A stretch of DNA of 64,000 bases from Candidatus Latescibacterota bacterium (lineage in GTDB: Bacteria; Krumholzibacteriota; Krumholzibacteriia; WVZY01), in contig CAWBQK010000010.1 in assembly GCA_963791045.1 (NCBI GenBank), positions 1 to 64,000 on the forward strand. The letters run 5' to 3'. Under the pieces are notes generated by a model. It was not told the DNA's origin and did no database searches. It was given only the letters and a program-made list of their open reading frames with translations. Each line of letters opens with the position of its first letter. The first letter of the stretch is position 1. This document shows positions 24,817 through 48,433 of the stretch, piece after piece. A program made the translations under genes and the position numbers.

Positions 24817-24870
24817 ACACACCACCTCCCAAAAGGACACAACCACACACTCCACCCTACCGGCGATTTA

Positions 24871-27036: not shown

Positions 27037-27226
27037 TGTCAAAGACGGCCGTTCGAGGCCGCGGGGGGAGGAAATTCAAACAATTCCAGTCCGTGTGTAC
27101 GGCATTCGCGAATACCGTAACGGACACACTCCGGTATACACCGGAATAACCTATATTGTTACAATATAGGGTTCATTGAGACGCGGGTTAAGGGCAAAAT
27201 ACGCAGATTGCGCCCGGCAGGGAGCT

Positions 27227-27589
27227 TTACTTTGCGAAAGCGTCCACGGCCTCATCGATTGACGGATAGGCCTCGAGAATGGACTGAAACTCCAGCAGCT
27301 GGAAAACCTCGAACACGTCTCCAACCATCCCCGCCAGCTTGAGGTCTCCACCGTTATTCCGGATCTTCTTAATTTCTCCGATAAATATACCCCAACCGGC
27401 CGAACTGATATATGTGACCCCGGACAGGTCGACGACGATCTTGAAAGTCGTCTTCTCAAGCAGCCCGTAAAGAGCCGCTTCCAGTTCGCTCGCGGTCGTC
27501 GTATCGAGATAACCACTTACTTTTAATATATTTACGTCGTTTCGCCCTTTGGCGGATGTAACGCTGACAACAATTCCATGCACCGTCAT
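27227..27589 (-). CDS. STAS-domain anti-sigma-factor antagonist
   Basis: 'GYLDTTT', 'IVVDLSGVTYISSAGWG', 'GGDLKL' and 'EVFQLLEF'. Confidence 0.92.
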   Translation of the reverse strand: MTVHGIVVSVTSAKGRNDVNILKVSGYLDTTTASELEAALYGLLEKTTFKIVVDLSGVTYISSAGWGIFIGEIKKIRNNGGDLKLAGMVGDVFEVFQLLEFQSILEAYPSIDEAVDAFAK

Positions 27590-27640
27590 AAATCAAACCC
27601 CTCCATTCGCCTTCGCAGCGGCGAACGTCTTGACTTTCAC

Positions 27641-28024
27641 CTAACCTTCTTCTGTTTTAGCACCTGCAGCGGACTGAAAGTCCCGCACCGCCTCCCCTTT
27701 ATCGCTATATGGCTTGAGGATGTTGTTGAACTCGAGCAAATCAAAAACTTCCCGGACCGGCGCCGTCATCGACGCGAGCTTGATATCGCCCGCATTGCGC
27801 CTGACCTTCTTGATTTCACTTATAAATATACCCCAACCTGCTGAGCTAATATAAGTTACGCCCGTCAGATCTACGACGATGCGGAAGCACGAATCCTCGA
27901 TAATCCGATTGATGGCTTCCTCGAGAGTTGACGCGTTCGTCGTCTCGATCGTCCCTTTGAGACTGAGCAATGTCAAAGGCAGAGGCGAAGTTAGCCTCTC
28001 CTCTGAAATTATCAACTTTTCCAT
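27641..28024 (-). CDS. STAS-domain anti-sigma-factor antagonist
   Basis: 'IVVDLTGVTYISSAGWG', 'GDIKL' and 'EVFDLLEF'. Confidence 0.92.
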   Translation of the reverse strand: MEKLIISEERLTSPLPLTLLSLKGTIETTNASTLEEAINRIIEDSCFRIVVDLTGVTYISSAGWGIFISEIKKVRRNAGDIKLASMTAPVREVFDLLEFNNILKPYSDKGEAVRDFQSAAGAKTEEG

Positions 28025-28058
28025 AAGATCCCCTTCTCGCTGCACTTCGATGCAAAAT

Positions 28059-29177
28059 TTAGTCCAAGAGCGCTTTCAGCAAGAGATGTATCCCCTGGCC
28101 GTCATTGACGGCAAGTTTAAGGTTTTTCTCCGCTTTTTTAAAGTTTTTGTTTATTGTAAGCGACTTATGGAACGAGTCCTTTGCTTTGTCAATATATAGT
28201 TTGCACTTCGCGGTGTAAAGCACGCCGAGATCGTTCTGCAGATCGGCGTAACCCGGATTGGCCTCCAGCGCTCTATGCGCACGCTCGACGTAACGATCTA
28301 TTTCATCTTCGGTTAGATTCTCAGAGTTGAACTTGAGAATCAAGTAGAGATCGAGCGAGAGATGGTTTTGCGACAGCCGCGATGCATCATCCTGGATCCC
28401 GGTCAAGAGCTCGTAAGCCTGATCGTACCGTTCGTTGTCGACCGCTTTGAACGCCTCCCGGAACTGCTCGGTATCAAGCGACGGCCGCAATTCGAGACAC
28501 TTACTCAATACACCTTTTAAGCGTTCCCTGAGACCCCGCGACAACTCGAATTCCTGCTTCTCCACTACATTGAGGCAAAGCGCGATCGCAAGATTGAGAT
28601 GTGCCTCGTGGTAATACTTGTTCAGTTCCACCGCACTCTCGAAAACACGCACGGCATCTTTGCACCTTTTGAGCCGCAAATAGGCACAACCAAGATCGTT
28701 GTGGAGGTCGGGGTAACTTGGAGAAAGCTCGAGACCTTTCTGGAACGACTTTATCGCCTTTTCGTATTCGCCAAGTGCAATGAGCGCGTTTCCCAAAATC
28801 GAGAATGCCTTCGATTGTTCGACGCCGAGTTTGACCGCCCTGACAACCTCCGCCATCGCCTCCCTGTACAGGCTCTGGTAGAAAAGCGCCTCACCGAGTT
28901 TGAGGTGCGATTTCCCGTCCTCGTTTTGTTGAAGCTTGGCTTTGATCTCGAGCAGTGAATTGATCCGGCTTTTTTTCTCTTCGTGATACGCTCTCACAAG
29001 GGACCGCGCCGTGTCGATCGGAAGCGACGTATCGAAACCTTCGACCTGCTTTGACAGCAGACTTCCTTCGTGAAACACCGATGTCACGATGGTCTTCTGA
29101 GCGGGGACAAGGTTTGTCTGTATGAAATACCTGTGTCCCTCGGCGACTATTTCGCTTCGGAGATCGTAATTTTCCAT
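28059..29177 (-). CDS. Cytoplasmic TPR protein with a small N-terminal alpha/beta domain
   Basis: Repeats such as 'LELSPSYPDLHNDLG' and 'LEANPGYADLQNDLG'. No signal peptide. Confidence 0.85.
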   Translation of the reverse strand: MENYDLRSEIVAEGHRYFIQTNLVPAQKTIVTSVFHEGSLLSKQVEGFDTSLPIDTARSLVRAYHEEKKSRINSLLEIKAKLQQNEDGKSHLKLGEALFYQSLYREAMAEVVRAVKLGVEQSKAFSILGNALIALGEYEKAIKSFQKGLELSPSYPDLHNDLGCAYLRLKRCKDAVRVFESAVELNKYYHEAHLNLAIALCLNVVEKQEFELSRGLRERLKGVLSKCLELRPSLDTEQFREAFKAVDNERYDQAYELLTGIQDDASRLSQNHLSLDLYLILKFNSENLTEDEIDRYVERAHRALEANPGYADLQNDLGVLYTAKCKLYIDKAKDSFHKSLTINKNFKKAEKNLKLAVNDGQGIHLLLKALLD

Positions 29178-29257
29178 GATTTCAGTCGTGTGTACCTTTT
29201 AGAGCGAATCCGACACTGCCAGGAATCAAATTCTAACCGATTCTCGCGATCAACCGT

Positions 29258-29533
29258 TCAAAAATCTTCGGCGTCCAAAAGAGATATCGCAACCCGAATC
29301 AGTGTATTGCGGGTCAGTCGTCCCCGATCCATCTTCTCAAGCTCCGCCTGCACGGCGTCTAAGTGCTTTATATCAGAAGGGGTTAGGGACACACTGACCA
29401 CGATCTCTTCCTGCTTGCGCTCCGGTTTCGAGCGCTTGCCGCCAAGGATCTTTTTCAAAGACCCCGACGCGCCTTTTTGTTTCGCGCCGCCGAAGACATC
29501 CTGTCCAAGTGATTGTTTGCGTTTAGGACGCAC
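29258..29533 (-). CDS. Small basic ParA partner, probable ribbon-helix-helix protein
   Basis: Overlaps the parA stop. Basic N-terminus 'KRKQSLG' and C-terminal 'VSVSLTPSDIKHLD...TRNTLIRVAI'. Confidence 0.6.
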   Translation of the reverse strand: MRPKRKQSLGQDVFGGAKQKGASGSLKKILGGKRSKPERKQEEIVVSVSLTPSDIKHLDAVQAELEKMDRGRLTRNTLIRVAISLLDAEDF

Positions 29534-30263
29534 GGCGCAAGAACTCCTCGGTCAATTGATAGTAGTCAAACGCGCCACGAGAGAGCGGCGAGTATTCAAA
29601 AATTGTACGGTTGAAACTGGGCGCTTCTCGCAACGACGTGTTGATCCGGATCACCGTATCGAACACGCGGTCGCTGAAATGTTTTCTCAGATTGTCCAGA
29701 ACTTCGCTCGACAACTTTGTGCGGCCGTCGAAAAACGTCGGGAGGATTCCGAGCACCCGCGTTTTGGTCGGCGAATAATCGTTGATCTCGTCAATGATCT
29801 CGAGTGTCTGTCGTGCACCCTCCTGCGCGAGATAATCCATACTCACTGGGATAATCACTTCATCTACATATGTAAGCGCATTGATGTTAATCAGGTTTAT
29901 CGTCGGCGAGCAGTCACAGAGCACGTAGTCGCAGCCATCGAGGTGTTCGAGCGCGAGGGTAAGACGCGATTCACGGTGCCGCTTTGAAGCAAGCATCATT
30001 TCGGTCTCGGCGAGATCGCGCCCTCCCGAGTCCACGACATACAGATTCTTGCGAACCTGGAGAATCTCGACCTCACCCGTTTGCAAGAGATCGCAAAGAG
30101 TCTTGCGCCCCCTCACGTCAAATGTCACCGCGACATTCCGCTGGGCGTCGCAATCGATCACCAACACTCTTTTCCCGCTTAGGGCGAGACCATGGGCGAG
30201 GTTAACCGCGGTAGTCGTCTTTCCAGTACCACCCTTCGAGGTGATAATGCCTATCTTTCTCAT
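29523..30263 (-). CDS. parA: ParA/Soj family ATPase (orphan, no parB)
   Basis: Deviant Walker A 'KGGTGKTT', 'IDCDAQRN', 'DCSP', 'DGRTKLS' and 'IRIN..LREAPS'. Confidence 0.9.
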   Translation of the reverse strand: MRKIGIITSKGGTGKTTTAVNLAHGLALSGKRVLVIDCDAQRNVAVTFDVRGRKTLCDLLQTGEVEILQVRKNLYVVDSGGRDLAETEMMLASKRHRESRLTLALEHLDGCDYVLCDCSPTINLININALTYVDEVIIPVSMDYLAQEGARQTLEIIDEINDYSPTKTRVLGILPTFFDGRTKLSSEVLDNLRKHFSDRVFDTVIRINTSLREAPSFNRTIFEYSPLSRGAFDYYQLTEEFLRRAS

Positions 30264-33200
30264 GAAGCGTCGTCGTCTTCTTTCTTATCTTTGCCGTTCT
30301 TTTTCTTGATCTTCTTCAGCTTCTGGCCGTATTGCGCCCATCCCATGTCTCTGATTTTCTTGTCCTCGGGAACGTGATCGTCGAATTCGGCTGAGTCGAC
30401 ATCGATATTGTGAGAGTCGGCGGACAAATCGACAAACACATCGTCACGAACTTCGGCCGGACCGCGGTCGGATTCGTCCTGAGCCCGATCGACTTCTTCT
30501 TTTTCATCCGCCTTCTCGAAGGACGGCGACTTCCACAGAGAGCGTGTGGGATCATCTTCTTTCACGGTCTCATCGACCGCTTCGGTCTCGACCGCCTCAT
30601 CATCATCCGCCCAGGACATCGCACCCCCTGTCAGCTCTTCTTCGTCCCATTCCGACACAGAGTCGGCGGGCCCTACTTCCGTCGGCGTGCCTGTCTCTAT
30701 CGGCCCCAGAATGTCTTCTACCGACACGTCGTCGATGGGGCTCGGAGTCGTGTCATTATGGTGGTCGATCGGCTCGACAAACGAGGGCTCGGCAGGCGCC
30801 TGAGGGCGTGGTTTCGCCGGGTCGGAACCTTGCGCGCCAAACGAGGTCAGCGCCTCGCCGCGGGTAAGGTAGGTGCTGATTATCGAGTGCAATTCGAGAA
30901 GACTGAATATTTCGTAGAGATCCTGGTTCATTCCGCATATCGCGAGCGATCCGCCCCAGCTTCTCACTACTTCGTTATATTTGGCAACAAGACCCCACCC
31001 TGTACTCGATATGTAATCAACATTCGAAAAATCAAGCATCAGGAAAATCGGTTTGGACTGGAGTTTGTCTTTCAACTCGCCGTCCAACCGATCCACCGCC
31101 ACGGCTTCGATCGGACCTCTGGCGGTCCCGACGAGGACCCCGTCAGACTCTTCCCAACGCGCCCACTCATTGCCATGACTCACTAACGGTTTCAAATTGA
31201 TTTCTCTGCGTACGGGGGCTTCGGGAATCGGTGGCTCAACCGGTGGCTCAACCGCCTTTTCAACCGGCGGCGCTTCCAATTCCGTCGTTGGCTCGAACGT
31301 CGCGGGGGCCGGCTCTACATGCGCGTCCGCCGGCGTTTGAGGATGATCTGTCGGCTTACCGCCGGCCACGCTGTCAAAATCCTCGATAGCGTCGGTCAAC
31401 ACATCGAAAGAAGAAAGTACGATGTTGAAACCAAGCATCGTAAATATGTAGAAGACGTCGGGGTCCATCCCGAAGAGCTTTATGTCGCCATCGTGTCTTC
31501 TGACGTCTCGAAGGCGCTCGGTAAATGTGCCCCAACCACCACTACTGACATACTCGACGAGCGACATGTCGATTACGATTCTGTAGATGCCGTTCTGAAT
31601 GACTTTGTCAATTGCCTGTCGCAAGTTCTCAGCGCTTACCGTGTCGATAATTCCAGTGAGGGACAATACGGCGCTGTTCCCGGTTGCCCCGACGGTCGCC
31701 GCTTCGATCCGCAGGCTGTCCCACTCGGTGACTTCGGTCTCCACCCTCTGCAGTTCTTTGGACGGCTCCGCATCCTCGCCCCCTCCGGCGAAACTCTCCT
31801 CGATCTCGGACGCAGGACCCAAAGGCTCAACGCGGGCCACAAGAGGAGATTCGACGGGCGCCGCCGGTGCCGCCGACATTCGCTCATCCACGGGCTTCAT
31901 GAAGTAACCGCACGCCGCTTCGATATCGGGCAGCGCCTTTAGAATGTCGCTAAAACCAAGAAGTTCATATACGTCATAGACTTCGGCTGACATCCCGACG
32001 AGCACCACGTCGCCACCCTGCTCACGAAGATGTTTGACCTCGCCGACCATAATACCCCAACCACCGCTCGAAATGTAGGAGACACTGGAGAGGTCCACAA
32101 CCATCTTAAGCGCGCCCCTGGCGATAATATCGTTGAGTTTCTGTTCGAGCGCGGTGGTGGACACGGAATCGAGATGACCGTCAATGCGCAGGATCGTGAC
32201 ATCGTTGGCATCCCGGACGACGTTCAACTCGAGGTCGCCGACGACTTCCATTTCTTCGTTGTCAAAAATACTGTCTATCGATGACGCATCGAATGCGGGT
32301 TCGCGAGGCGGCGGAGCGGTGACGCCATCGTCAGTGCGTGAAATGGACGTATCAATCGTGTCTGGTATAAACCGTCCCAGTTCATCGAGGAAATCGGGTT
32401 CGGGCTCCGGTTCCTGCTCCACGGCGGGCGTTTCCGCGGACGGCTCCTCGGCCTGTGGCGCTTTCAACAGGTCTTCGACCATATCGCGGCTGCTTCTCCG
32501 TGCCGCCGCCTGGTCTTCCTCGTAGAGCTGGTGCCGCTTGAGATACTCTATGCGGAGTTCTTTTGTATTGAGACCCAGACGCTTCAACTCGTCGTACACC
32601 ATTCTTTGCGTGATCTGACGCGATTCATCCTTGTCCTTGTTGAATTCTTCGGCGATTCTCTTCGCACCCAGCTCAGGGTTCGCTTTCACAACCGCGAGAA
32701 GCGCCTTGCGCTCTTCGATGCTCACCCGTTTGAGATCGACGTCCTGCCGCAATACCTTGTTTTTAACCCGCGCTCGCCCATCACCTCCATCCGCTTCCTA
32801 TATTTGTAGAACGTCGAGGGAGACACCTTCATCTTCGCGCAGGCTTCCTTGACGCTTACGCCCTCGACTTCGACCATATCGATGAGCTTTTTGCGGATGC
32901 CGGACAGAACATCGTCCGCCGTCAGCTTCTCTTTTACGGCGACGACAGTGATATCATCGTTCTGTGGCTCCCGCCGGTAAACGCTTTAATTTCCTTCTCA
33001 AGACGCTTGATAAACTCTTCGGGATGGAGATGACCGTATTTCTTTATGGTTTCGATGAGGCGGTCCTCGCCGAACTGCTCCCGTCTCTCGTTCATCGCTT
33101 CCGTGACGCCATCGGTGTAAATCAGAAGCATGTCGTCTTTTTTTAGCTTAATTTTCTCGAGACTGATCGACTTGCGGAACAGCTGGTCATCGGGAAGACT

Positions 33201-34936
33201 GATGCCGACCGGGAAACCCCTTGGGGTTGAGGAAATAGGTCTCGTTGCTCTCGGCACGGTAGAGAATCATCGGATTGTGCCCGGCGCTCGCATAGCTAAT
33301 GATCCTGTTCTTCGAATCGAGAATCACGTAGAACATCGTAACGAACATGCCCTTTCGCATGTCGTCCGTAACGAAGTCATTCATTTTGGCCATCACGTCG
33401 GAAGCGTTCTTGTTGCCTCTTGCTTCCATCCGCAGCGCCGTACGGATCATCGTCATAACCAGCGAACCGGGGACGCCCTTGCCGGATACATCCGCGACCA
33501 CGACGCCAAGGGTATCGTCATCGACCTGGACGAAGTCGTAGTAGTCTCCGCCGACCTCTTTCGCCGCCTGGTAGTAGCGGCGCGATGTCGTAGCCACTGA
33601 TGTCGGGATGCTTTTTGGGAAGCAGCGCGTGCTGGATCTGCTTGGCGACCTCGATCTCCTTCTGGAGTTTTTCATGTTCGAGGACACTCTCCTGCGCCTT
33701 TTTGAACTTCTGGGTGATTTCATTGAAAACCGACGCGATGGCACCGATTTCAGCCGGGCCCTCGACACTGATCTTTCCGTCAAGAGACCCCTGGCCGATC
33801 GCGCGGACACCATCGGTCAATACCTGGATCGGCTTGACGAATACCGACACGAGCGCCGCGATCAACAGAACGCCGATGAGGAAAAATCCAACAAGGATAA
33901 CCGACGTCAAAAGCCTTGGATCGGCGATAGTGGCTTCGACAGCATCCTCCCACACGCCGAGATGGACGCTGCCGAGGACGAGATCCTGGCCCGTCTCTTC
34001 GGCGCGGAGCCGAACACGGAAGTCGATATCCCGAACCGGCCTCTCCATGTGTTCGTAGCGGGTCCAAACCACGCGGTCGTCTTCGCGAAGGATCTGATCC
34101 CCTCCGGGATCATTGTACTCGGAATAGATCTCATCGATAATGCTCGACGAAAGTATTGTCCCCTCCGAATCAACGACTCTTACATAGCTCAACTCGTCGT
34201 TGCCCTCAAGGATTCGACTAATAAATGCTGTGAGACTGACCTGCTCGACGGAATACTCTTCGGGCTCGAGAAGAAGCGCTTTGCTTCGCTCGGAGAGGTT
34301 TTCCGCAAGCCGTCTCTTCTCGATCCATTGCGAGGTTTTTTGTTCCTTGATCGTGCCCGTTTGCCGGACAAAAACAAAACTCCAGATCGCGGCAATCAGA
34401 ATCAGAAGGCCGAGGCTCGCTCGAAGCGTAAATTTGTATCGAAGCGTACCGCGCCATCCGATACGGCCGGGCAGCGAGCGCGACAAGGCTCCCATGCTCG
34501 ACTTGCTCATAAAGAGCTCGTTACCCGATTCAGCCGCGCGGTACTGGACCTCATCCATCAGGCGGTTTATGAGAAAAACACCCAGGCCGCCCTTACGTCC
34601 CGTTTCCACGTACTGGTCGAGATCGGGATCCTTGACCCCCGCAAAATCGAACCGCTCCCCTGTATCAAACAAACGTATCGATATGTTGCCGGAAGAAATC
34701 TCGGCTTTGATGTGGATTTCGCCGACCACTTCCGAGTAAGCGTGCTTGATGATGTTGGTACACGCTTCGTCCACGGCGAGTTTGGTGTTATTCGTCTCGC
34801 GCGACGAGAACCCCGCCTCGTCACAGCATGTCGAGACAAAATCCCGGACCTTACTCAGCTGTCCCTCGTCCGCCGGGACGCGGAGTTCGCGGACTTCGAT
34901 GTGTTTGTCGACCAGGTTTGCGGGACCACTTGCCAT
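30260..34936 (-). CDS. Fused membrane signalling protein: RsbW-like HATPase, TM, periplasmic domain, TM, HAMP, SpoIIE/PP2C phosphatase, double HTH, 3x STAS (~1,550 aa; about four frameshifts)
   Basis: 'LAVDEACTNIIKHAY..D.G..GGLGVFLI..LMDEV'; two TMs; HAMP; PP2C 'VGGDYYD', 'ADVSGKG', 'YTDGVTEA', 'DDIT'; three 'Y(I/V)SSxGWG' STAS domains. Frames switch near 33580, 33215, 32965 and 32760. Confidence 0.85.
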
Positions 34937-34939
34937 GAT

Positions 34940-36865: not shown

Positions 36866-39800
36866 TTCGCCACCGCCATTTTGATCCGCGTCGATTTCGA
36901 ACCCGCATCGAGCTGGCAGATATACATTCCGTTCCGGACTACTTCGCCCTTCATGTTGCGGCCGTCCCAGGTAACCTCCTGGGGGCCCTCCCCGGTCCCC
37001 GGTTCACCCTGTGAAAATTGCTGCTCGTAGACGAGCGAACCCCGCAGGTCGTAGACCCTTATCGAGACGGGCCCGGCGCTGTCCATAATATAGGCGATCC
37101 GCGTCAACTCGGACCCCGCCTGGAACGGGTTGGGATAGTTGTGCGCGTACTCTTCGAACTCATTGCTCAGGATAACGAGCGGCTGAGAGCGGATGCGGCC
37201 GTTGATGAGTTGGCCGGTGTCCTTGTCGACCACGGCGATCGGCCGCCCAGAGTCATCTTCCTTGACGGCGATCGAGAACGGGCCGTGGAACGAAAGGACG
37301 ATTTCATCGAGCTGGGCGTTGTCGGCGATGCTCACCGCGAAGACAAACGAGTCTGCGTCCGCCTGCTCGAGGATGATCCCGCCGGCGTCTATAATCATCG
37401 GGTTTTGCGTGATGACTCCGTCTATTTGAGATGCAGGATCACCTCGCCGATAAACGTAGAATTCGCTCAGCGTCCGCGACGGCTCGTCGACTTCGCGCCC
37501 GTTCTTGTCGAGAACGGTCACACGGAAAGTGTCGATCCGGACCCGTTCGGCACTATCGTCGAGGTTCGCCACCTCAACGGCCAACATGTCGATGTCGGAT
37601 GTGCCTTTTGGCACCACCATCGCTTCAATTCCGATGTCGCTTGAGAAATCGTCCACGGTGACGGCGTTCGACTCGGTCTGGATCGCGATCGGAACGGGTG
37701 AGCTCGAAACAACCGCGGCGGAGCCGGTGTTCTCATCGTTGGGAATCGAATCCATCACTACGCGGATGAGTTCTAGCGAAGTGAACCTGATGGGTGCACG
37801 AACTTGCCACGTTACGGTTTGGCCAACCACAAATGGCTGCAATGCATCTCCCGATACAATCGTGTATTCGAATTCTGGGTCTAGATCCGGAAGTTCGATC
37901 CTAAGCCGCGCGCCGGCCGTATCCACCGCCGCCAGGCCGAGATTATCAACCCGCGCTTCGATATCAAACACAGTGCCAAACGCCACGCGACCATCTTTTG
38001 CCTCATCGGGACTCGTGATCGATGCCGTGTACTCGAGACGCGCCTTCGTGACCGTCGTCACCGACAGCGTGTCGCTGAACGCCTCGATGTTCTCGCTCGA
38101 GTTCTGGTCGAAGCCGTCATACGTCACCAGGAATGAGACCTCACCGGGAGTCGCCGGCGCATCGATACGCCATTGCACAGCTTTTTCGCCACCATCGCCG
38201 TCACCCAGCGAACGGACGCTCGGATCGATCACCTGGCCGACGGAGCCCGACAGGACCTCGAGTGTCGCCGTGATATCCGTCGTGGTCGCCTCGGCAAGCG
38301 TCCGTGCCTGAATCGTGTAACGCTGGTCGGTGCTCACCGAATCGTCCATTGCGCCGTCCGGTGAAATCACCTCAAAGACAAGCGGTGTAAAACCTGCCTG
38401 CTCGACAATCTCGAGGGTCACGGGCGCCGTTCCGGTGGTCACGACGGCCACGTCGCCGCTGTTTCTCTCAATCGGACTGTTTGTAATGTCGACTTCGAGA
38501 ACCTGGTTCGTCGCGGGGAGTTCGGGCGCGCGGATGTCCCACTGAACCGGTGCGCCGACAACAAATGTCTGAGTCGCCGGTGATCCCGCGTCGATCGTGA
38601 ACCCCACCGGCACCGTAAGCGTGAGGGTTCCCGAGTTGTCCACCAACGACTGTCCGTTATTCGTGACGAGCGCCGTAAGTGTGAACGGCTGCTCCGTGCT
38701 CAACGTCGTCGCGTCAGGCGGGAAAGTAACGCTTGCCGCCACGTTTAGATCGGCCGGCGTCTGAATGAGCATATCGATCCAGCCGTCGTTGCTCGTGTTG
38801 TCCGACACGTCCTTGTCCCCGTCGATATCGTACCCGACGAAGGTCCCGTCAATCCGAAGCGCGCCGGACGGTCCCGTCGTCGTGCCGGTCGACTCGACAT
38901 TGAAGACGAGCGTATCAACCGCACCAGACCGAAGCGAATCATCGCCGGATATCTGGAATACCGCCACATCGGGGATCGTGTACTCGGTCGTCACGTTGCC
39001 GGCACCCGAGACACTGATAGAGAGCTTCGTGAGATCGGGCTTGAGCTGGAGCGCCGCAGCACCGTCGTTACGGACTATCATGCGCACCTGCCAATCCCTC
39101 AGCTGCCCTGCAGTGACACTGTCCTGCGAGGCCAACATATCAACAATAACGACCGCACTCTCGGCGCCGATGGTGACCCGGTCGCCCGCGAGCGTAAAGG
39201 ATTTTGAATAGTTGTTACCGTTCTCCGTGCCCACGATGTCAACGGTGACGGGGTAAACACCCTCTGTAAACGTGCTCGGGATCGGGACTTCCTCAAAGGA
39301 CAGCGTGGTATCGGTTCCCGCGAGGATCGCGCCTACCTGAGACGCGTCTAGACGCGGTTGGATCGTCGTGACTCCGTCGGTGAACGAGAACTTCGTCCGG
39401 TCCGCGTCGAGCACCAGTGTCGCCGCGCCAACGATCTGGCTTACGTCGATTCTGAATGTGGCCGGCTCGCCGGCATTGACATTCTTGGGAAGCAGGGTGC
39501 CGGCGATATAGGTCGGATTGGGCTCGAGCTGGACCTCCACGCTCCCCGCCTGCTCAGCGGGCGTCACTGGTGTACTCTGGTTGAGCTCGGTTCCCTCGAT
39601 GTGCGCGGTGAAGGGCTGATTGCCGAAGCCGTCGCTGAAATCCTGGGTTTGCGGGATCGTAAACGTAAGGATCGTCGACGCCCCACCGGCAAGCAACAGC
39701 GATCCCACAGGGCCCGTGACCCGCGCGGGAATGCCGTTCGCAAACTCGATATAGGTTCTCGCCGGATCGTTGCTCAGCTGCACCTCCGCGCCGCCGTCGT

Positions 39801-42800
39801 TTGTGACGCCGACGCTGATCGTCCAGTCGTTCTCCTGGAACTTCGTCACCGGGTCCTGCGACGGCGTGACGGACGTAATCCGGATATCCCCCGGTGTCTG
39901 AACCGTAACCTCGTCGCCCGAGACCGGGCCGACCGTCTGTTCGTCATCGGGGCTGTTTGCATCCTCGGCCGTCACCTGTCCGCTGATGGTATAGGTGTCG
40001 GGCGCTCCCGTGTCGGTCACGTCGAAGACCAGGGTATCCAGCTCGTTCTCCTCGAGCTGCACACCACCGCCCTGAAGCGCGTTCCGCGGCGTCGCGTTCC
40101 ATCCGGCATCAGCAGGATCGAACGCCACCGACGCCGAACCCGGTAGTAAGAGATCGAGCGCCGCTTCGCCGCTGTTCCGGACCACCATCCGGATCTGCCA
40201 GCTGGTCTGTCCCTCGGTGACGGTAGGCCGGCCTGGCGTGATACCGACGATCTCGAGGACGCCGGGCAGCTCGACGAAGAGCGCCCCCATCCCACCGGTC
40301 GACGTGTCGACCGAGATGGGGTCGTTGTTCACGAGATTGGTCGCATCGAGGAAACCCTCGATCGTATAGGCACCCGCAAGAGGCAGTGAACTTCCATTCA
40401 CCACGACGTCAAACGTGATGCTGCCGTTCGTGCCGCCCGCGAGGGTGTCCGAGCCTGAGTCGAAAACGCCCGGCGGCGTGAATATAAACCGGCCGGACTG
40501 GTTGACCCCCGCCCGGATGAACTCAATATCCGTGTCGTCGAGACGAATGTCCGCGCCGCCCCTGTTTTCGACGTTGAGCGTGACGGTGAAGGACGCCGAT
40601 TGATTGTTCGTGATCGTGTCCTGCGAGGTTGTGGTTGACGCGATCGCGACATCCGTCGCTTCGAGAACCTCGATCGATTGGGCAGTCAACATGAACTCGC
40701 GCTTGAATCCGTTGTCCATGCCGACCACGCGGACCCGCGGTATGTACGACGGACTGGCATCAGACGACACGAGGGTCGACTGGAAGGTCAGTGTTTCCGA
40801 ACCCGCGCCGGGAATCGTCGTCTCACCGACCAACGGGGCATCGAACGATTGGCCGTCGAACCAGAAACGTGTCGAGTCGGGAATGAGAACGAGATCGGCG
40901 CCGCCGTTGTTTGTGGCGGTAAACGAAAAGCTTACCGAGGTTTGGCGGCTCACATCGAGCGGCACCAGACCACCGCCGTATGTAATGTCGGCCGGCGTCT
41001 ACGACGTCTCACCAGGTCATCGGGATCAACATCGGCCGTGTTCAGGACCGTCGGAGAACGACCCGCCGTTCTCGTACCCTCCAGGTGAATCTCAATCGGG
41101 ATAGCTTCCCCCGTGAAAAGCCGTTGGCACAACCACATCGTCGAATACGATCGTCTGCTGGGCCCCTCCGCTGATCGCAACGGGCGCCGCCAAGAGCGCG
41201 GTATACACGTATGCCCGTGCCGTCGTTGAATGTGATGAAGCTCAACGTCTCGTCGAGCGTCACCGTGGCTTGCGCCGGTATTCTGAACGTCAAGAGAGAA
41301 TCCATAACTGTCGTCCGCGCGTCACGACAGGCGGATCGAGAGTGCTGCCGATATACGCGAGATCCGCGGCGCTTTCGATCGTCCAATTGCCGAGCGGATT
41401 GGGCGATACGTCATCGTCACTCACCGGCGCGCCGTCGACAGTCCCCGACACGGCGGCGTTGATCGTGAACGTGCCGAGTTCGGATGTCGGTCGCACGGTC
41501 ACGCTCAGGGGAATCGTGACCCTCTGCGGGGCCTGCGGGGTTCCGGGGGGAACCGAAACCGCTGGAGAAATGGTTTGTGAGACACCGTCGTACGCGCCGC
41601 CGGAGAACGTAAAGGACACAAAGTCGATGAGCGCCTCGACAGGGCCCTGGTTCTCGACGGTCACCCGGATGACTCCCGTCTGTCCGCGGCTTACCGGCGA
41701 GTCGGCGCTGATGCCCAGAATCTCGATCGCCGTCAGGCGGAGCGAATTGACCGGGAGTGAAACGCCCGCCTTGGCATAGTCGGACTCGTATTCGTCCCGT
41801 CCGACAAAATCGACGACGGGCGTGTACTGCCCCGGATCCATTGCGCTGCTGATCTGACTCGATGAAAACGTAAGAGTGTCCGTCTGCCCGTCAAGGACCC
41901 ACGTCGCCGCCGTGAGGAACGCAGTGAAGGTCTCATTCCCGTCCGAAAACTTGAAAGCCGTTCCACCGAAAAGCCGCACATTGGTGGCGTTTTCGGTCTC
42001 GACATTAACGGTGAAGCCAACTGTCTGCCCGGCCTGCACAATCGATGGGGTCGGCCCGGAAACGACAGTGAGGTTCGGCACCGGCGCGAAGTACGACGTT
42101 GCCGTCGTCGTGGCCACGGGATTATCGAACGCGGTGAGCGTCACAACCGCCGCCTGCACCGTCGTCTCCACTATCGCGCCCGACCGGAGTATGAGCGAGA
42201 CCGTCCCGTCCGACGCGGTCGCCCGCTGGTGGCCCGGCGCGGGATCGACGTCGTCCGATTGAATCGTCCCTCGATCCGTCGAGACGGTAATGAGCGTGCC
42301 CGTGCTGACAATATTTCCGTAAGCATCCTGGATGGGGTCTGTCTGAATCGTGACCTCACTCGCGCCGTTCGCCGTGATCGTATCGGGCTCCGCCGACACA
42401 ACGATGGCATCCGGTATCCCCGGCTCGATCGCAATGGGAACACTCGTTCCCGTCGCCCCACCGCCCTGGGTTTCCGCTTCGATTTGTATCGGTCCGACGG
42501 TCTCCCACGCGAGTGTTGTCGCCGCCTGTCCGCCGGCGAGCTGTATGGGGTTCGTGCCGAATCCCGTGATGGCTCCGCCCGGGAGGACGCGGAGATCAAC
42601 AAAATTTGTCGCGGTCGTCACGAGATTGTCCTGAGCGTCGAGCGCCCGGACGGTAAATCCGAACGCGGTCCCCGCTTCTTCGGTTGTCACATCGGGAATA
42701 ACTTCATAACTCGCAATGTCGCCGGCAATCGATGTCACGGTAAACGTCTTCGTCTCGAGCGCCGGTGGATTCCCGTCCTTGATGCTCGAACGCACGTTGT

Positions 42801-45800
42801 GCGCGCCGGCCTGGCCCGACACGGTTAAGTCCACGGTCGCGACACCGGACGAATTCGTGCTCGTGATCCCGCCGTCGGACAGCGATGCGGTTCCATCCGG
42901 AGCGAGTGTAATCGTGAATACGACGGGTTCACCGGATACGGGATTCCCGTACTGGTCCGTGACCGTCACCGCGAGCGGCTGAACCTGCCCGACGGGGACC
43001 AACGTACTGTCTCCGGACGTGATGGTTACCTCGTAGGCCGTTGCGGGCACAATCGTGATCGTTGTGCTTGTATCTGCCGGCTCTCCGCCGCCCGTACTCA
43101 CAGTGAGGCCGGTCTGTTCGACAACATCATCGCTTACCGATGTTGTAAACGCGCCGTTCGTTAGTTGTCCCGAGGGCGGGCTAAAAACGGGGTTCCCCGT
43201 CGTGCTTCCGAATACGACGGTGGTAGCGTCATCGTCGACGGGGTTGTTGTTTGTATCGTAGGCCTGAACGGTCACGTTGACCGATTCGCCGGCGGTCCAC
43301 GTGGTCTTGTTCGGACTGAATGTGAAGAGATAATAAGAAATCGCCGTACTCGCCTGCGTGGTCACATCGAATTCGACCGCGTCGGTATAGGTGCCGTTGT
43401 CGAAGTTTGCGCGGACGCGGTTGAGACCAACGGTTGATCCCGTCGTGAGAACCGTCGAGACCAGGCCGTTTACGTCGCTCGTATCGGAGTCCGGCGCAAC
43501 CGAGGCTCCGCCCGGATTCTGGATGACCGAGAACGACACGGTCTGGCCCTGAACGTTGTTGTCGTAAATATCCCGTACTTCCGCCTCGAGAGGAGGCGTA
43601 TCGTTTCCAGCAATGATTCCCGTAAGTGGATCCGTGATTCGCGAGAGATGGTGGGCAATATTGGGCGACACTGTGACGGTGCCGCTGTACCCCGGCGATC
43701 CCGGTGCGCCGGAGACGCGAACCTTCATCGTCCTCGCTTTGTTGTACGTTTCGCCGACGGCGGCCTGACCCGACATGAGCGTCGCGCTCCGAACCGTCAG
43801 CTGTTCTCCGGCGGGAAGCTCGGCCTGTGTCCCCGCGTCCACAGCGTCGAGATCAATCGCGCTGTTCGCCCCGAGAACAGTATTGCCGTACTGATCTTTC
43901 GCGGTGACATTCACAACGAACGGATTACCGGCTACGACACTTACCACCGTGTTCACCACATACGTGGAGATGGTACCCGTATCGGTGATTTGAATCGTTT
44001 CATCGCCGGACCCAAGCACACTGCCGTCGTCCTCCGCCAAAAAGTCCCACGTGCCCGTAATAAATCCGCGCGCGTAGACGGTGACCTGTCCGCCGCTCAA
44101 CACGAACTGCGTTGTCGGGGTTCCAAAATCCGAGGCGCTGAATACGAGACCGCTTCCCGATTCGGGGACGATGTTGACGGTACTCGTGTTGGCACCGTCA
44201 AGATTTCCCGTCCCGTCAACCGCCTCGACAAGAAACGAAAACGTCTGACCGGCGTTCTGGGGGTCGGGCGTCGGTCCCGTGATCCGCAGAAGCGTCGCCT
44301 GTCCAACAACACTCGTGAACGTGACCGGGCTCACCGCGGCGGTGGCCTGATCGCCAAAGGCATCGATCGTATCTGACTGACCCGCGGTGGCCGGCGCCTC
44401 ATAGAGCACCGATATCTGGCCATTCGAATCGGTCAAACCGTTTTGGAGCGTAGGGCCGCCACTGGTCGGGTTGGTCGATCCGGGGTCGGATTTGAGAGAA
44501 CCCTGGGCAATATCGGAAATAAAAATCGAGACCTGTTTGTTCGGAACCGCGTTTCCATACGTATCAACGAGCGTCGCCTCGACGGGCGGAGCATCCGTCT
44601 CGACGGTGACATTCTGGCTCGCGGGGGTGAGCGTGATCTGGGTTCCCGCCCCCGGCGTACCCGTCGCACCGAATAGCACATCGACGGCAGGCGAACCGGT
44701 CAAATAAGCGGTCGCCGTATTGGAGCCGGTCGTCGTGCCCAGTCGCCAATCCTGGCAGGTTGCTTCACCCAGAATGTTCGTCGTCGCCTCGTTCTCGACG
44801 GGGCCGCCCGAAATGACATCGATTAAACCGCCGCCCGACACGACTTCAAACGTCACCGACGCGCCGTCGACGAGGTTGTCGTAGTCATCCTTGACACGGA
44901 CGACGAGATCGTTCGCGACGAACTGGTTGACCACGGCGGCTTGAGTGTTACCCGAGACGATTTCGATTTGCTTCTCCGGACCATTGTCGACGACGATGGA
45001 CCCCGAATTGTCCGACACGGGACCACTCTCCGCACCGAGCGTAATCGTCTCCTTTTTGAAGACCGTCACGTTCAAGACAGCGTTCCCGCCATCGAGCGGA
45101 TCGAATGTGTAGAATTTGCCGCCGCCATCCAGTCCAATTGTCCCCGACCCCGAACCTTCGGACCAGTTCCCCTCCGTCCCCGTCGTCGTTGTCGACACGT
45201 AGACTTTTCCCGCGTAATCGGTAATCACGTTTTCTTCCGCATCCCGGGCCTCGAGCGTCACCGGCTCGGGCGTTCCCGCCACGGCGTTCCCATCCACCGT
45301 CCACACAAACGTCGCCACCGCACCCGGCGTAAAATCGATCTCGACCGTGCCGGTGATCGGCGTTCCGTCGATCGTCGCGCTTACAGTCCTCGGACCGGTC
45401 GTCGTGCTCGCGAGGCGGCCCGTCGTCGTCCCGTCGACGCCGGTCAGCGTGGTCGGCTGCGTGAGAATCGCGCCGTCACCCGGCGGGTTGATCGAAAGCA
45501 CAACGAGCGCGCCTTCGATCAAGTTGTCGAATTCGTCTTTTGCCGTGATTGTGATGATGCTCTCGTCGGAGCCGTTCGCTTCGACCGAAAGCGGATTGGC
45601 CGCAATCTCGCTCAAATCCGGGTCCGCCGCGCCCGCGATGAACGCAACCGTCGCGCTGTCCGCGATCTCCACACCGTTCGCCGTTGCTCCCACCTTGACC
45701 ATCTCGGCCTTTGTGTTCCGTACAATTCCCTGGGCCTGGCCCGTCGGATCCGTCGGAGCCGGCGGGTTCACGGGGAGCGCACTTCCCGTCACACCGAGCG

Positions 45801-47188
45801 ACACGCTGGCGCCGGATACAGGGTTTCCGAATTCATCCCTCACGATCACGCTTACGGGGCTTTGATCAACGCCGTCCGCGACCGCTTCCGGATCGGTCGT
45901 CATGACCGTGGACATAGTCGAATGGACGGAGGCCGCATCGACCATCACGGTCGTCGTGCCGCTCAAGCCCGGCAGGAGTCCGTCGTCGGTGAGCATGATC
46001 ACGCGATGCGGCTCGTTCGCGTTCGTGTCCGTATTACGGTAGTCGATCACGGCGGTCTGGTCACCCGTATTCATCTGCAGAACCGCAACCGGGGTCGTGT
46101 GATCCGACGGAAGATAAAACTGACCCGAGGAAGACTCTTCCGGAGCGGGCGAAATTTCGGAAGCGTCTGCGGTGGGGGATGACGACAACAGGACCTGGCG
46201 GTTCTGCGTCAGGTTCGTTGGATTTCCATAGGCATCGACGACATCGATCGTGTAGGACAAAAATTGTCCCGCCGTGAATGTTGCGCCGTTGGGAGAAAGG
46301 ATGAGTCTTGCCGGCGGCCCCGGAATTACCGACTGCATCTGGGTCGCGTCTCCCCAGGATTGACCATTCGCTGAAGCGGTCAGGACGGGAGAACCCGGGA
46401 TCGTATCCGCATAGAAAAACGACACACCCGAAACCCCTGCCGGCATCAAAACACTGGTGATCGGCGCGCCTTCGCTCGTCGCGGCAAAAGAACCTGTTCC
46501 CGATGTCGACGAGAGGTCGATCCACTGACCGCTCGCCATTTCGCTCACGTTTCCATACACATCGCGGGCTTCAACGTAGATCGGTCCGCCCTCGCCGGTT
46601 GTCGCAAACACAAAGGCCGTGCTTGTAAACACGAGTTCGACGGCCGGCCCGCCTTTGAGATTGATCGTCGGCATATCGTTAATCGGAGACACCGCGACGC
46701 CCGTCGGGTCGCTTTCCACAACAAACGCGACCGCTGGATTTGCCGCCGTTGGCGGGGTAACGCGTGCACCCGGATTGGCGCCGCCACTGTCGTCGCCATA
46801 GACGATGGTGATAAGTTTGGGTTCGGGAAGGTCGTCGATGCCGATTGTCAAAATCTGCCCGGAAACCGACGGAGTCAATACGGCGCCGTGATCGCTGCTG
46901 ACGGTGACATAACCCGTTGAGGCGGGGTTTGTGACCTGTGGTGGCGCCCAACCGGCGGGAAACGTTACGGCAATGGTCCCGTTCGTGAAGTTATCGTCGG
47001 GATCATAAACAATCGTCCACGTCCCCGGCGTGATCAACAACGCCCGAGTCCGGCGTTATTGTCGCATCGCCGCTCCCGGGCCCGATCAATCCCGCGATCG
47101 CGGGCGCCGTGTTGCCGAGGAGAAAGAATGCAAAGGGGATAAGTATCAACAAACCGCGTAGTGGTCTAATAGCACGCAATTGAATCAC
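36862..47188 (-). CDS. Giant secreted invasin/Big_1 Ig-repeat surface protein with FlgD-Ig/T9SS-like C-terminal domain (~3,400 aa; frameshifted)
   Basis: Signal peptide from GTG 47188. Many 'V.D.YGN.V.G..V.F' and 'ADG/ANG' Big_1 repeats. C-terminal 'NYPNPF...IRVYDLRG..V...WDGRN..G..V.NG.Y'. Frameshifts near 47040 and 40990-41320 join ORFs 47003-47320, 41290-47040 and 36862-40965. Confidence 0.85.
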
Positions 47189-47259
47189 CGTATTGGTTAC
47201 AGGCCTTCGATTCCAATTACAAATCGGATGGAGATTATAGCACGAACCCGTCAACAAGC

Positions 47260-47275
47260 TGCAAAATGCGTGCCT
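47260..47275 (-). promoter_or_regulatory. sigma54-type -24/-12 promoter of the giant-protein operon
   Basis: Minus strand AGGCACGCATTTTGCA (GG-N10-GC), about 70 nt before the start codon. An extended -10 'TGCTATAAT' lies just downstream. Confidence 0.6.
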
Positions 47276-47581
47276 TAGTTCCGGGTGGGCGCCGAGCAGG
47301 ACTTTCTCGCGCAAAATCAACGGGTTCCGTCGCCGATCGACCCCGATTTTGCACGATCGGGCCGTTTATCCGGGTGTAATCCCCCAACCGATAGCGAAAT
47401 TGCAATGAAAACGGGAAGTTAGACCCACCGGGGCCCCCTGGATCGGGCAAACCCGACCCGCGGGCTAGCATAACCCTAACCTATTGGCAAAAAATATTTT
47501 ACGCTGGAATTATTCTTGCGGATTCTGTCAGCCGGAACCCCATCCCTGAGATAGCCGGACGAGAAACAATCCCGTGACGCG

Positions 47582-47601: not shown

Positions 47602-47985
47602 CTATCGAGGCCGAACCCGAACGACCGAGTTTTCCCCGGAGAAACCGTCTTCGACCGTCTCCGGATTGCTCGGATCCGATGTCCATTCGGTGCCGTTCAC
47701 AACGAATTTGTACTCGTAGACCCCTGGGGGGAGGTTGTAGTACAACGTCCATTGTCCATCGCCATTCTCGTCGACCATCGGGTCGGCGGTTGGTGACCAG
47801 TTGTTGAAATCGCCGACGATATAGACCTTTTTTGCATCCTGGTCGAAATACCGGAAAATCACTCCGTCCTCGACGATTTCAGGGCCCGCACCAATGCCCC
47901 CACCTTTCGAGCCGCCGAAGCAACCGGCGAGCGCAAAAGACAGGAATACAACGCCAAACACCAATCTCGTATGTTTAATACTCAT
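47602..47985 (-). CDS. CBM48 / AMPK-beta glycogen-binding-domain lipoprotein
   Basis: Lipobox 'LAGC', 'VYIVGDFNNW' and 'G.YEYKFVVNG..W..DP.NP...DG....NSV'. Confidence 0.88.
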   Translation of the reverse strand: MSIKHTRLVFGVVFLSFALAGCFGGSKGGGIGAGPEIVEDGVIFRYFDQDAKKVYIVGDFNNWSPTADPMVDENGDGQWTLYYNLPPGVYEYKFVVNGTEWTSDPSNPETVEDGFSGENSVVRVRPR

Positions 47986-47992
47986 AAGTAGT

Positions 47993-48433
47993 TTACCGGA
48001 TTTCCAGCCGGTCGCTGTCGGAGTACAAAATGACCTGCGAACACGTGCCTGTCGGGCCACCGGATACCTCTTCAGGCACCCCCGGATCAAGATGCCACGT
48101 GTTTTCGTCCACCCAAAACAAATATTTGTACCGCCCTGCCGGCAACGCAACGGATATTTCCCAGATACCGTCGCTATCCTCATCCTTCATCAAACCGATA
48201 TTGGCCTCCCCGGCGCTGCCGTCTCCTCTCGCCCAGTTATTCTCGGGCCAGTTACCGGCGAGCTGAACCCTTCGCGCCGACGGAGAGTAGAACCGGAATA
48301 CGATTTCACCCTCCTTGACGGCGGGTCCCGCGCTCAGACTTCGGGGGGCGATATATCCGCAACCGGCCATCGTGCAGATCAGCACGGCGGCGATGATCAA
48401 ACCTGTTATTGCCCGTATACGGAGCATCATCAT
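47993..48433 (-). CDS. CBM48-like glycogen-binding-domain lipoprotein
   Basis: Lipobox 'MAGC', 'VQLAGNW..NNW' and 'GIWEI...LPAGRYKYLFWVD..W..DP'. Confidence 0.82.
   Translation of the reverse strand: MMMLRIRAITGLIIAAVLICTMAGCGYIAPRSLSAGPAVKEGEIVFRFYSPSARRVQLAGNWPENNWARGDGSAGEANIGLMKDEDSDGIWEISVALPAGRYKYLFWVDENTWHLDPGVPEEVSGGPTGTCSQVILYSDSDRLEIR

Follow-up and report, generated by a model that had tools for sequence, protein, structure and literature searches.

A candidate cell-surface signalling cluster in the Krumholzibacteriia: a giant Ig-repeat protein, a PorV-like barrel with a TPR tail and a fused partner-switching sensor

Can a protein displayed on the surface of a bacterium report through its own outer-membrane barrel to a switch in the cytoplasm, or do genes for these parts merely lie side by side? 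The question is raised by a gene cluster of a Candidatus Latescibacterota genome (3.66 Mb in 21 contigs, completeness 80.9%, contamination 5.8%). The window, as the whole stretch analyzed is called here, is the first 64 kb of contig C10 (64,000 nt). From position 27227 to about 47190, every long open reading frame (ORF) in the ORF listing of the window is on the minus strand, in the order giant Big_1/invasin-type protein with a C-terminal sorting domain (CTD), PorV/PorQ-type barrel with a TPR tail, fused sensor, ParA, small basic protein, TPR protein, and two STAS proteins. The composition of the cluster, its conservation, the folds of its products, and their catalytic and phospho-acceptor motifs were established by profile searches, structure prediction, and comparison across the phylum. 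Given these, it is about an even call that the barrel is an outer-membrane co-receptor feeding a partner switch, and the cluster a lineage-specific cell-surface signalling module of the Krumholzibacteriia. All of the parts come from known families; their combination is new to the literature covered, as a variant of partner switching and cell-surface signalling. No published description of the system was found in the accessible literature (subscription journals and supplementary files were outside the scope), in agreement with an earlier reading made from the sequence only, which knew of no system of such composition.

The features of the cluster are as follows (aa, amino acids; T9SS, type IX secretion system; AF2, AlphaFold2; HTH, helix-turn-helix):

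36862..47188, minus strand: giant surface protein gene, ~3440 codons (Pfam Big_1 6.3e-45, Invasin_D3 2.2e-35)
36877..37137, minus strand: C-terminal sorting domain of the giant, putative T9SS type A CTD, FlgD-Ig-like (TIGR04183, FlgD_ig)
34940..36865, minus strand: PorV/PorQ-family outer-membrane barrel with helical TPR tail, 641 aa (NF033709, AF2, Foldseek)
34946..35105, minus strand: last TPR of the tail, residues ~587-640, its most conserved stretch and the predicted contact surface for the sensor
30260..34936, minus strand: fused sensor gene, in five frames here and one polypeptide in relatives
34502..34879, minus strand: RsbW/SpoIIAB-like serine kinase, cytoplasmic and N-terminal (HATPase_c_2 2.1e-28, residues 20-145)
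33911..34360, minus strand: Cache-like domain in the periplasm (residues 193-342), flanked by the hydrophobic segments 169-196 and 336-375
32950..33600, minus strand: PP2C (SpoIIE-type) phosphatase, across three frames (SpoIIE profile and motifs)
32560..32930, minus strand: transposase-like HTH region (HTH_29, HTH_28 and HTH_23 at residues 680-727 of an intact orthologue)
31907-32200, 31355-31669 and 30839-31120, minus strand: three tethered STAS domains (Pfam STAS 2.8e-51, three stretches)
30263..30365, minus strand: sensor C-terminus, with the conserved peptide (K/R)(I/L)Rx(M/L/I)GWxxYGxxL and a basic run after it (orthologue comparison)
29523..30263, minus strand: Soj-like ParA/MinD-family ATPase (AAA_31 6.8e-38, CbiA 7.9e-21)
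29258..29533, minus strand: small basic protein, 91 aa, with N-terminal peptide xKRKKSLGRDxF near-invariant (14 orthologues aligned)
28059..29177, minus strand: TPR protein, 372 aa, presumed cytoplasmic (TPR_11 1.9e-16; no signal peptide or hydrophobic segment)
27641..28045, minus strand: stand-alone STAS protein 1 (STAS 2.6e-17; motif DLTGVTYISSAGWG)
27227..27589, minus strand: stand-alone STAS protein 2 (STAS 6.8e-20; 54-82% identity in relatives)

Conservation of the cluster and its paralogues

The sequence-only reading described eight co-oriented, tightly coupled genes, and the ORFs and every junction it named were found again. The giant and barrel genes share an ATGA overlap at 36862-36865, as do the sensor and ParA genes at 30260-30263; barrel and sensor are separated by a 3-nt gap at 34937-34939 (TAA-ATC-ATG, 34934-34942), and ParA has 11 nt in common with the small ORF (29523-29533). 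Past the small ORF the spacers are 80, 13, and 51 nt, followed by 184 nt before the next conserved gene. The domain order given in that reading was likewise borne out by Pfam and NCBIfam profile searches of the window ORFs and of an intact orthologue. Promoter and terminator scans gave counts not above those of shuffled sequence (7 vs 8.7 and 24 vs 19.9, respectively). A search of public runs for RNA evidence of one transcript listed none.

The distribution of the cluster was surveyed in 208 species genomes of the phylum, with barrel matches accepted at E<=1e-40 (below, G and L handles are genome and locus labels of relatives, f denotes a family and g a genus). Barrels were found in 90 of the 208: 10 of 12 genomes in f1, all 23 in f2, 39 of 43 in f5, all eight in f9, the single one in f8, six of 10 in f7, and two of seven in f4, with none among the 12 of f6 or the 91 of f3. 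The kinase-HAMP part of the sensor was also found in 90, with nearly the same distribution. According to the two hit tables taken together, 86 of the 90 barrel genomes have the sensor directly 3' of the barrel and in the same orientation. The four exceptions are G071, where the genes are on different contigs; G019, where the barrel is at a contig end; G102, where a paralogue was matched and the sensor is at a contig start; and G042, where only a paralogue was matched. The order giant, barrel-TPR, sensor, STAS is kept in seven of the nine families (f1, f2, f4, f5, f7, f8, and f9), in line with the conserved gene order on which the earlier proposal depended. All 27 Krumholzibacteriia-type loci of the named collection also have the barrel followed by the sensor; many of these are from the G-handle genomes and so are not independent.

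The ~50-kb neighbourhood is collinear throughout the order, so synteny of close relatives weighs little, and the distant families are the informative ones. In f5, f8, and f9 (four loci) the whole gene set is matched in order, with the exception of the small ORF, for which there was no match. The sensor of the three f7 loci stops past the HTH, with ParA, the small ORF, and the TPR protein missing and one STAS left; these losses occur together in genus g6 as well, which belongs to the family of the window. The single f4 locus has ParA, and its TPR protein was not matched. Giant, barrel, sensor, and STAS remain together in all eight of these distant-family loci, and in G076 (f5), the only distant genome in which the upstream flank was compared, the upstream genes are not collinear. 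The losses define a core of giant, barrel-TPR, kinase-Cache-HAMP-PP2C-HTH, and one STAS, while the three tethered STAS, ParA, small protein, TPR protein, and second STAS are an accessory block. The eight-gene system proposed from the sequence therefore stands in its giant-barrel-sensor-STAS core; its ParA, small protein, TPR protein, and tethered STAS are accessory, and the conserved block takes in two more downstream genes, described in the last section.

One locus, in a single-contig relative (L020/L026, G010:C1:1039700-1059200), has a barrel match beginning at query residue 176 and a sensor that stops after the HTH (811-aa frame). With unrelated sequence after the HTH, it looks disrupted or rearranged.

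The cluster is also not a one-off system. A second, simpler module is found in the same genome on contig C6 (C6:396000-411655; L061), with a cargo protein of >1705 aa bearing a FlgD_ig-type CTD, a PorV barrel with TPR (split by a frameshift), an sCache-HAMP-SpoIIE protein (519 aa), and a HATPase_c_2-STAS protein (371 aa). Similar loci were sampled around paralogous barrels of ~700 aa in relatives (12 loci, three of them from G010 alone). A Cache-HAMP-PP2C gene directly follows the barrel-TPR gene in 11 of the 12; a co-oriented homologous cargo gene precedes the barrel in 10, a kinase-STAS gene follows in eight, and L084 has the barrel only. No family was found for the N-terminal 119 residues of the type-2 kinase-STAS protein. 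Distance matrices of barrels and sensors are strongly correlated (Mantel r 0.83 for 28 modules and 0.95 for the 12 type-2 ones, with neither value reached in 2000 permutations), which shows joint duplication and divergence of the two genes. Within this multi-copy family of cargo, PorV-TPR, Cache-HAMP-PP2C, and kinase-STAS modules, the cluster is the most elaborate one. Near the C6 module are a prepilin-type N_methyl protein and a Lon-like protease.

Two occurrences outside the phylum were noted. In a Leptospiraceae metagenome-assembled genome (MAG; L056:2004-5922), a 647-aa TPR protein is encoded 4 nt 5' of an sCache-HAMP-PP2C protein with 29% identity to the type-2 sensor over its full length, and a STAS gene is on the opposite strand; this pair is a hint that the TPR-sensor pairing may predate the barrel fusion. 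A MAG labelled Spirochaetia (L053:3696-7764 and 10886-15191) has two pairs of CTD cargo and PorV-like barrel, with no PP2C sensor; one of the barrels has a TPR tail (564 aa), and a T2SSE ATPase-TPR fusion is encoded between the pairs.

Sensor, barrel, surface protein and ParA

Intact orthologues encode the sensor in one ORF of 1434-1589 aa. One of these (L015:11530-15936) has HATPase_c_2 at residues 19-144, sCache_3_2 at 206-338, HAMP at 364-406, SpoIIE at 471-667, HTH at 680-727, and three STAS domains from 864. The one-polypeptide partner-switching sensor of the sequence-only reading thus holds in its kinase-HAMP-PP2C-HTH-3xSTAS order and as a single ORF in relatives, but not in the window itself, where the gene is in five frames. 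Residues D56 E57 N61 H65, D91 G93, and G116 G117 G119, which we take to be the N-box and G-boxes, are invariant in 22 orthologues, and RsbW models score 83.7 and 76.2 bits, under their equivalog cut-offs; the domain would accordingly be classed, by its motifs, as an RsbW/SpoIIAB-type GHKL serine kinase. With a cut-off of 28.4, sCache_3_2 scores 20.2 in the window (sub-threshold) and 27.9 in the intact orthologue (just under). The SpoIIE model aligns through positions 1-104 with the piece 33187-33813 and 98-178 with the piece 32934-33257 (1.7e-49 in the intact orthologue), and GGDYYDF, ADVSGKG, YTDG, and NDDIT, presumably the catalytic motifs, are found in the window translations, as expected for a putative PP2C/SpoIIE phosphatase with metal-binding Asp motifs.

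The tethered STAS domains share the motif D-L-x4-Y-[IV]-S-S-x-G-W-G, its serine pair present in 45 of 47 domains (the other two have N-S). Among 53 further STAS matches, whose rows partly overlap, the pair is found in 52, and the exception has A-S. The motif serine is presumably equivalent to SpoIIAA Ser58, and the five STAS domains encoded here are likely STAS antagonists with a conserved phosphorylatable serine. STAS protein 2 is the best conserved of them and is found in each cluster variant examined. No sigma-factor domain or other defined kinase target was found among the window ORFs scanned with Pfam, consistent with the earlier statement that the operon has no sigma factor gene; the rest of the genome was not searched. 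The HTH region, set aside in the sequence-only reading, is 44-91% identical across families (an IS481 N-terminal model covers orthologue residues 680-794) and is a candidate output. The C-terminal GWxxYG peptide is found in the window and in 17 of 17 long-form orthologues, all with ParA next to the sensor, and in none of three short forms, which lack ParA. Database annotations of the cluster's parts are generic ("anti-sigma factor antagonist" or "SpoIIE family phosphatase"). Metagenomic orthologues number in the hundreds, with 1427 hits listed in a database search.

The barrel protein has a signal peptide (residues 9-29), followed by the barrel itself (~85-320) and by ~320 residues of purely helical tail (324-640). 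A signal helix, barrel strands, and helical tail are all seen in its AF2 model, built from a 23-row alignment (predicted local distance difference test, pLDDT, 84.5; predicted TM-score, pTM, 0.53). The top two PDB matches of the model in Foldseek are the T9SS translocon entries 8gl6_F (E 4.5e-10) and 6h3i_F (E 9.4e-10), with TM by target 0.63, and the next are TPR proteins and FadL/TodX barrels, which suggests a FadL-like barrel fold like that of solved PorV. Scores with the PorQ model (NF033711, 66.2 bits vs 220) and the two PorP/SprF models (Pfam 23.3 vs 22.3; TIGR03519 20.6 vs 90.55) were also compared, and an identity as PorP/SprF was rejected in favour of PorV/PorQ on profile scores. Of the PorV-TPR barrel described earlier, the PorV/PorQ-type fold and the TPR tail were thus recovered, while the PorP/SprF likeness barely scores. 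The envelope-spanning topology also agrees with what had been proposed: the barrel carries a periplasmic helical tail, and the sensor has two hydrophobic segments around its Cache-like domain.

The frame containing the start of the giant has no start codon at 47275; a likely start is GTG 47188, ahead of a signal-peptide-like stretch. The hydrophobic sequence RPLRGLLILIPFAFFLLGNTAPAIAG follows this GTG, in a frame that a frameshift separates from the main ORF. Orthologues of the giant are single ORFs of >3100 aa (4540 aa in G007). At its C-terminus TIGR04183 scores 24.3 bits vs a cut-off of 23 (residues 1277-1363 of the 36862-40965 piece) and Pfam FlgD_ig 27.7 vs 27, with Por_Secre_tail sub-threshold at 16.9 vs 27, so by profile the giant qualifies as a probable T9SS cargo with a type A sorting domain. 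For a Big_1/invasin protein an identity as an inverse autotransporter was also considered and rejected: Pfam lists no N-terminal barrel domain, and the protein ends in a T9SS CTD. The host scores for SprA_N (64.1 bits vs 27) and for PorU (NF033707, 554.7 vs 420), with ~50 CTD-like matches in the genome, and therefore appears to encode a T9SS translocon and sortase. A subtilase (Peptidase_S8) with a FlgD_ig-type C-terminal domain at 58022-59851, one of these ~50 C-termini, is another likely T9SS cargo in the window.

ParA has the deviant Walker A SKGGTGKTT at residues 9-17, fitting the KGGxGK[ST] pattern of a small ParA, and its best PDB sequence match is the Thermus Soj segregation protein 1wcv (9.6e-43). 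NF041546 scores 84.5 vs a cut-off of 180, and the BcsQ model aligns over its full length, also under the cut-off. The small basic protein encoded next to it had been read as a ribbon-helix-helix (RHH) protein, a fold that could not be confirmed. No family was assigned to the window's copy, RHH_1 matched a single orthologue below threshold (E 0.01, 16.2 bits vs 20.5), and a profile search against the PDB with the small protein matched no RHH protein. A strand-helix-helix pattern in its C-terminal half was seen by eye in the alignment. Its N-terminal KRKKSLGRDxF peptide is of the basic kind through which ParB-like partners stimulate ParA ATPases.

A predicted barrel-sensor contact and the readings it bears on

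The sequence-only reading suggested complex prediction for the TPR tail and the sensor's periplasmic domain, and this was carried out with tail residues 322-641 and Cache residues 193-342, each with its own alignment, and three controls. A contact was predicted that passed all controls, with an interaction score (ipSAE) of 0.62 (0.62, 0.63, and 0.61 in individual runs) vs 0.00 for the best control. This ipSAE mark is reached by 58 of 80 solved complexes and two of 110 mismatched pairs, counts which hold only roughly here because custom alignments were used. The runs have >=92% of contacts in common, with partner pLDDT >=82. The interface consists of the last TPR (587-629) and of sensor residues 226-241 and 267-271. 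Its tail side is clearly better conserved (0.785, vs 0.538 for the remainder of the tail), a value reached by none of 10000 random sets. The model thus supports, but does not show, docking of the barrel's last TPR on the periplasmic domain of the sensor; we know of no solved TPR-Cache complex that it could have memorised.

A possible path from the surface to the cytoplasm can be drawn from these parts. The giant Ig-repeat protein would be exported by the T9SS and either held at the surface or handed over by the adjacent PorV/PorQ-type barrel, by analogy with the roles of PorV and PorQ for PorU and PorZ. In Porphyromonas gingivalis, PorU and PorZ are reported to be anchored by PorV and PorQ, respectively (PMC5562754), and cargo genes linked to genes for dedicated shuttle barrels have been described (PMC12618676). 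The TPR tail of the barrel would be in the periplasm, its conserved last repeat docked on the Cache-like domain of the sensor. A change at the surface or in the barrel, perhaps when cargo is loaded or lost, a ligand binds, or the adhesin comes under load, could then be relayed inward through HAMP to the PP2C domain. The opposing actions of PP2C and the fused RsbW-like kinase would set serine phosphorylation on the three tethered STAS domains and on one or two free STAS proteins. With no sigma factor encoded here, the sensor HTH is the best candidate for an output, its DNA binding perhaps gated by the STAS/kinase switch; the switch could act through the HTH, through partners encoded elsewhere, or both. 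In most lineages ParA, the small basic partner, and the cytoplasmic TPR protein are added, and probably place or cluster the sensor via the GWxxYG peptide. Positioning of the complex by ParA and a role in contact sensing, both proposed in the sequence-only reading, are inferences, as are the direction of signalling, the nature of the signal, and the HTH output. A broader form of the idea, which we would put forward only tentatively, is that PorV-TPR barrels in general are co-receptors of an unrecognised trans-envelope signalling class, in which each T9SS-displayed giant reports via its own barrel to its own Cache-HAMP-PP2C/RsbW/STAS switch, with several channels per genome in the manner of TonB-dependent transducers and their ECF sigma factors, the focal cluster adding the HTH output and ParA/adaptor positioning via GWxxYG.

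Several observations weigh against the co-receptor reading. The tail-Cache score is model confidence only, and the sensor side of the interface shows no extra conservation over the remaining Cache domain (0.50 vs 0.49, permutation 0.43). Co-divergence of adjacent genes indicates co-inheritance, not contact, and the order-wide collinearity noted above has the same bearing on gene order. The barrel falls 0.9 bits short of the PorV family cut-off (NF033709, 89.1 vs 90). A type A CTD is normally removed by PorU, and the cargo would then no longer be attached to the barrel. In L053 a PorV-TPR barrel is found beside CTD cargo with no sensor, so a tail alone does not imply one. No conserved operator or centromere-like repeats were found, only short two-copy repeats, and at least seven frameshifts in the giant and sensor genes mean that the window's copy may be non-functional. 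The search for GldM (TIGR03517) gave no match in the genome; it gave none in the control genomes either and is therefore uninformative.

Much of this would be expected if the parts are neighbours and not a machine, that is, a cargo with its shuttle or anchor barrel, a partner-switching regulator whose Cache domain senses some small periplasmic ligand (as is presumed for many Cache-HAMP-PP2C proteins), and a ParA/adaptor pair merely co-transcribed or co-inherited. Each of these units is of a known kind and could work alone, and g6 and f7 do without ParA, the small protein, and the TPR protein. An arrangement of this sort is nonetheless rather unlikely in our view, and so, to the same degree, is its more detailed form, in which the tail has a role in secretion (docking to T9SS components in the periplasm, for instance) and ParA and its adaptor have a cargo of their own. 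Barrel-TPR and Cache-HAMP-PP2C are paired in nearly all of the paralogous loci sampled and in the eight distant-family loci, with an upstream flank that is not collinear in G076, the one distant genome checked; the gaps between genes are small; and the predicted contact, besides passing its three controls, uses the most conserved part of the tail. The same structural evidence, both the AF2 model and the predicted contact, could also describe control running from the inside out, with the phosphorylation state of the sensor acting through HAMP and Cache to pull or release the tail and so gate secretion, anchoring, or shedding of the giant. A kinase, a phosphatase, and tethered substrates on one polypeptide would suit a self-contained switch of this type, and the cluster has no dedicated output gene. 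Cache-HAMP modules are input devices, however, and the conserved HTH argues for a cytoplasmic, DNA-directed output, which makes the inside-out direction improbable.

A different doubt concerns only the copy in this genome, where, unlike in the sequence-only reading, the giant gene is not in one open frame. It is broken by at least three frameshifts, near 47040 and two between ~41300 and ~41000: its frames are 47006-47365 and 41293-47055, then two compensating shifts from ~41300 to ~41000, then 36865-40998. The sensor has four breaks, near 33575, 33215, 32960, and 32765, between the frames 33518-34936, 33187-33816, 32934-33266, 32722-32985, and 30260-32797. These could be real frameshifts in a decaying pseudogene cluster whose giant and sensor are no longer made; they are concentrated in two genes, and ~20 conserved genes at 11-30 kb and 47.6-64 kb have none. 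We judge such decay to be unlikely. Three of the four sensor shifts are at short homopolymers, the only premature stops are those that the shifts create, and each piece is still close to its orthologues (72-83% identity to G004, for example). Frameshifts also occur away from the cluster: the genes for CobS, a MatE transporter, and an ABC ATPase each fall into two overlapping frames (4359-5295, 7871-8642, and 9045-9822), and on C6 the type-2 barrel is broken too. The genome itself is only 80.9% complete, in 21 contigs. Three public DNA runs contain 5-7% of the sequence words sampled and gave short contigs of relatives, one of which carries an additional T precisely where the last sensor break lies, behind 32767; this was the one informative indel. 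We take the breaks to be mostly assembly indels, and a dead copy in this genome would in any case be compatible with the other readings for the family as a whole.

If the co-receptor reading is right, it would join two much-studied fields. To our knowledge there is no known route by which a displayed T9SS cargo or its shuttle barrel reports to the cytoplasm, and most partner-switching systems that we know of have no known physical input; docking of a barrel tail on a Cache domain would supply both. The cluster is also a candidate example of a short conserved peptide drawing a ParA-family ATPase into a signalling complex. The modules are small and repeated, so that recombinant domains of these uncultured bacteria could be used to test the idea. 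Should the reading be wrong, what is left is still a well-conserved, clade-marking gene cluster.

Known systems and flanking genes

The large CTD surface protein encoded directly 5' of a PorV-fold barrel, in a genome with SprA and PorU, resembles a T9SS cargo with a dedicated barrel. Precedents for such barrels are PorV, which serves type A CTDs, and, in Flavobacterium johnsoniae, the PorP/SprF-like shuttles whose genes adjoin those of type B cargo. The barrel here differs from T9SS PorV in its ~320-residue TPR tail, the matched PorV chains having 345-367 residues in all. The giant has a type A-like CTD and yet its own barrel paralogue, unlike known cargo and shuttles, and this lineage is outside the Bacteroidota, with a PP2C sensor beside the barrel in nearly all of its barrel genomes (86/90).

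Among partner-switching systems the nearest kin are RsbU/RsbV/RsbW and SpoIIE/SpoIIAA/SpoIIAB, the bifunctional SypE with SypA and HsbR with HsbA, and, for membrane HAMP-PP2C forms, SiaA of SiaABCD and chlamydial RsbU. The PP2C, the RsbW-type GHKL serine kinase, and STAS with a conserved serine are common ground, and as in SiaA a periplasmic sensor domain and HAMP precede the PP2C (NF038263 8.3e-19, far under cut-off). In contrast to these systems, kinase, sensor, phosphatase, HTH, and three STAS are on one membrane protein of ~1450-1590 aa; the cluster has no gene for a sigma factor, diguanylate cyclase, or other known target; and the switch is coupled to an outer-membrane barrel and ParA.

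A functional likeness may also be drawn to signalling by TonB-dependent transducers, such as FecA-FecR-FecI and the SusC-like/anti-sigma/extracytoplasmic function (ECF) sigma systems of Bacteroidota. In both cases a barrel with a periplasmic extension would touch the periplasmic domain of an inner-membrane regulator encoded next to it, and there are many paralogues per genome, each with a surface function of its own. The barrel here is of the 14-strand PorV/FadL-like type and not a 22-strand receptor, its extension is a C-terminal TPR and not an N-terminal signalling domain, and the relay would be by STAS serine phosphorylation and not by anti-sigma proteolysis. Profile searches found no TonB-dependent receptor, anti-sigma, or sigma domain in the cluster; with none of the defining parts, it is not a member of that family.

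ParA/MinD ATPases with small adaptors are known from type Ib ParA-ParG, McdA-McdB, ParC-ParP, and BcsQ-BcsR. The small Soj-like ParA, with an overlapping gene for a ~90-aa protein whose conserved N-terminal peptide is basic, is of this general form. It differs from partition pairs in having no centromere-like repeats that could be found, in being inside a signalling operon, with the RHH fold of its partner unconfirmed, and in its presumed cargo, a membrane sensor with a conserved C-terminal peptide.

Two further genes lie 3' of the cluster:

24871..27042, minus strand: VWA-like membrane protein, 723 aa (weak VWA matches), separated by the 184-nt gap, membership uncertain
23143..24855, minus strand: lamin-tail-domain (LTD) protein (LTD 3.7e-19)

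The first of these has an N-terminal hydrophobic helix pair, VWA-like, beta-sandwich, and flavodoxin-like domains, and a C-terminal helix (AF2 pLDDT 83.2); its neighbours in the protein atlas are widespread VWA and GATase1_like proteins. VWA-like and LTD genes are found 3' of the cluster in every family examined, the VWA-like gene at each of the distant loci and the LTD gene after the VWA-like gene in f1, f2, f4, f5, and f7. They travel with the cluster and extend the conserved block by two genes. The gap between STAS protein 2 and the VWA-like gene (27042-27227) contains two palindromes, one of 22 nt at 27098-27119 and one of 10+1+10 nt at 27150-27170. Both are unique to this genome and were not seen in the same gap of nine relatives.

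On the other side, the upstream neighbours at 47602-54034 are two CBM48/AMPK1_CBM proteins, two family-less proteins, and a further PorV-like barrel (51961-52995). Collinearity of these genes extends to G007 and G015 (same order) and not to G076 (f5).

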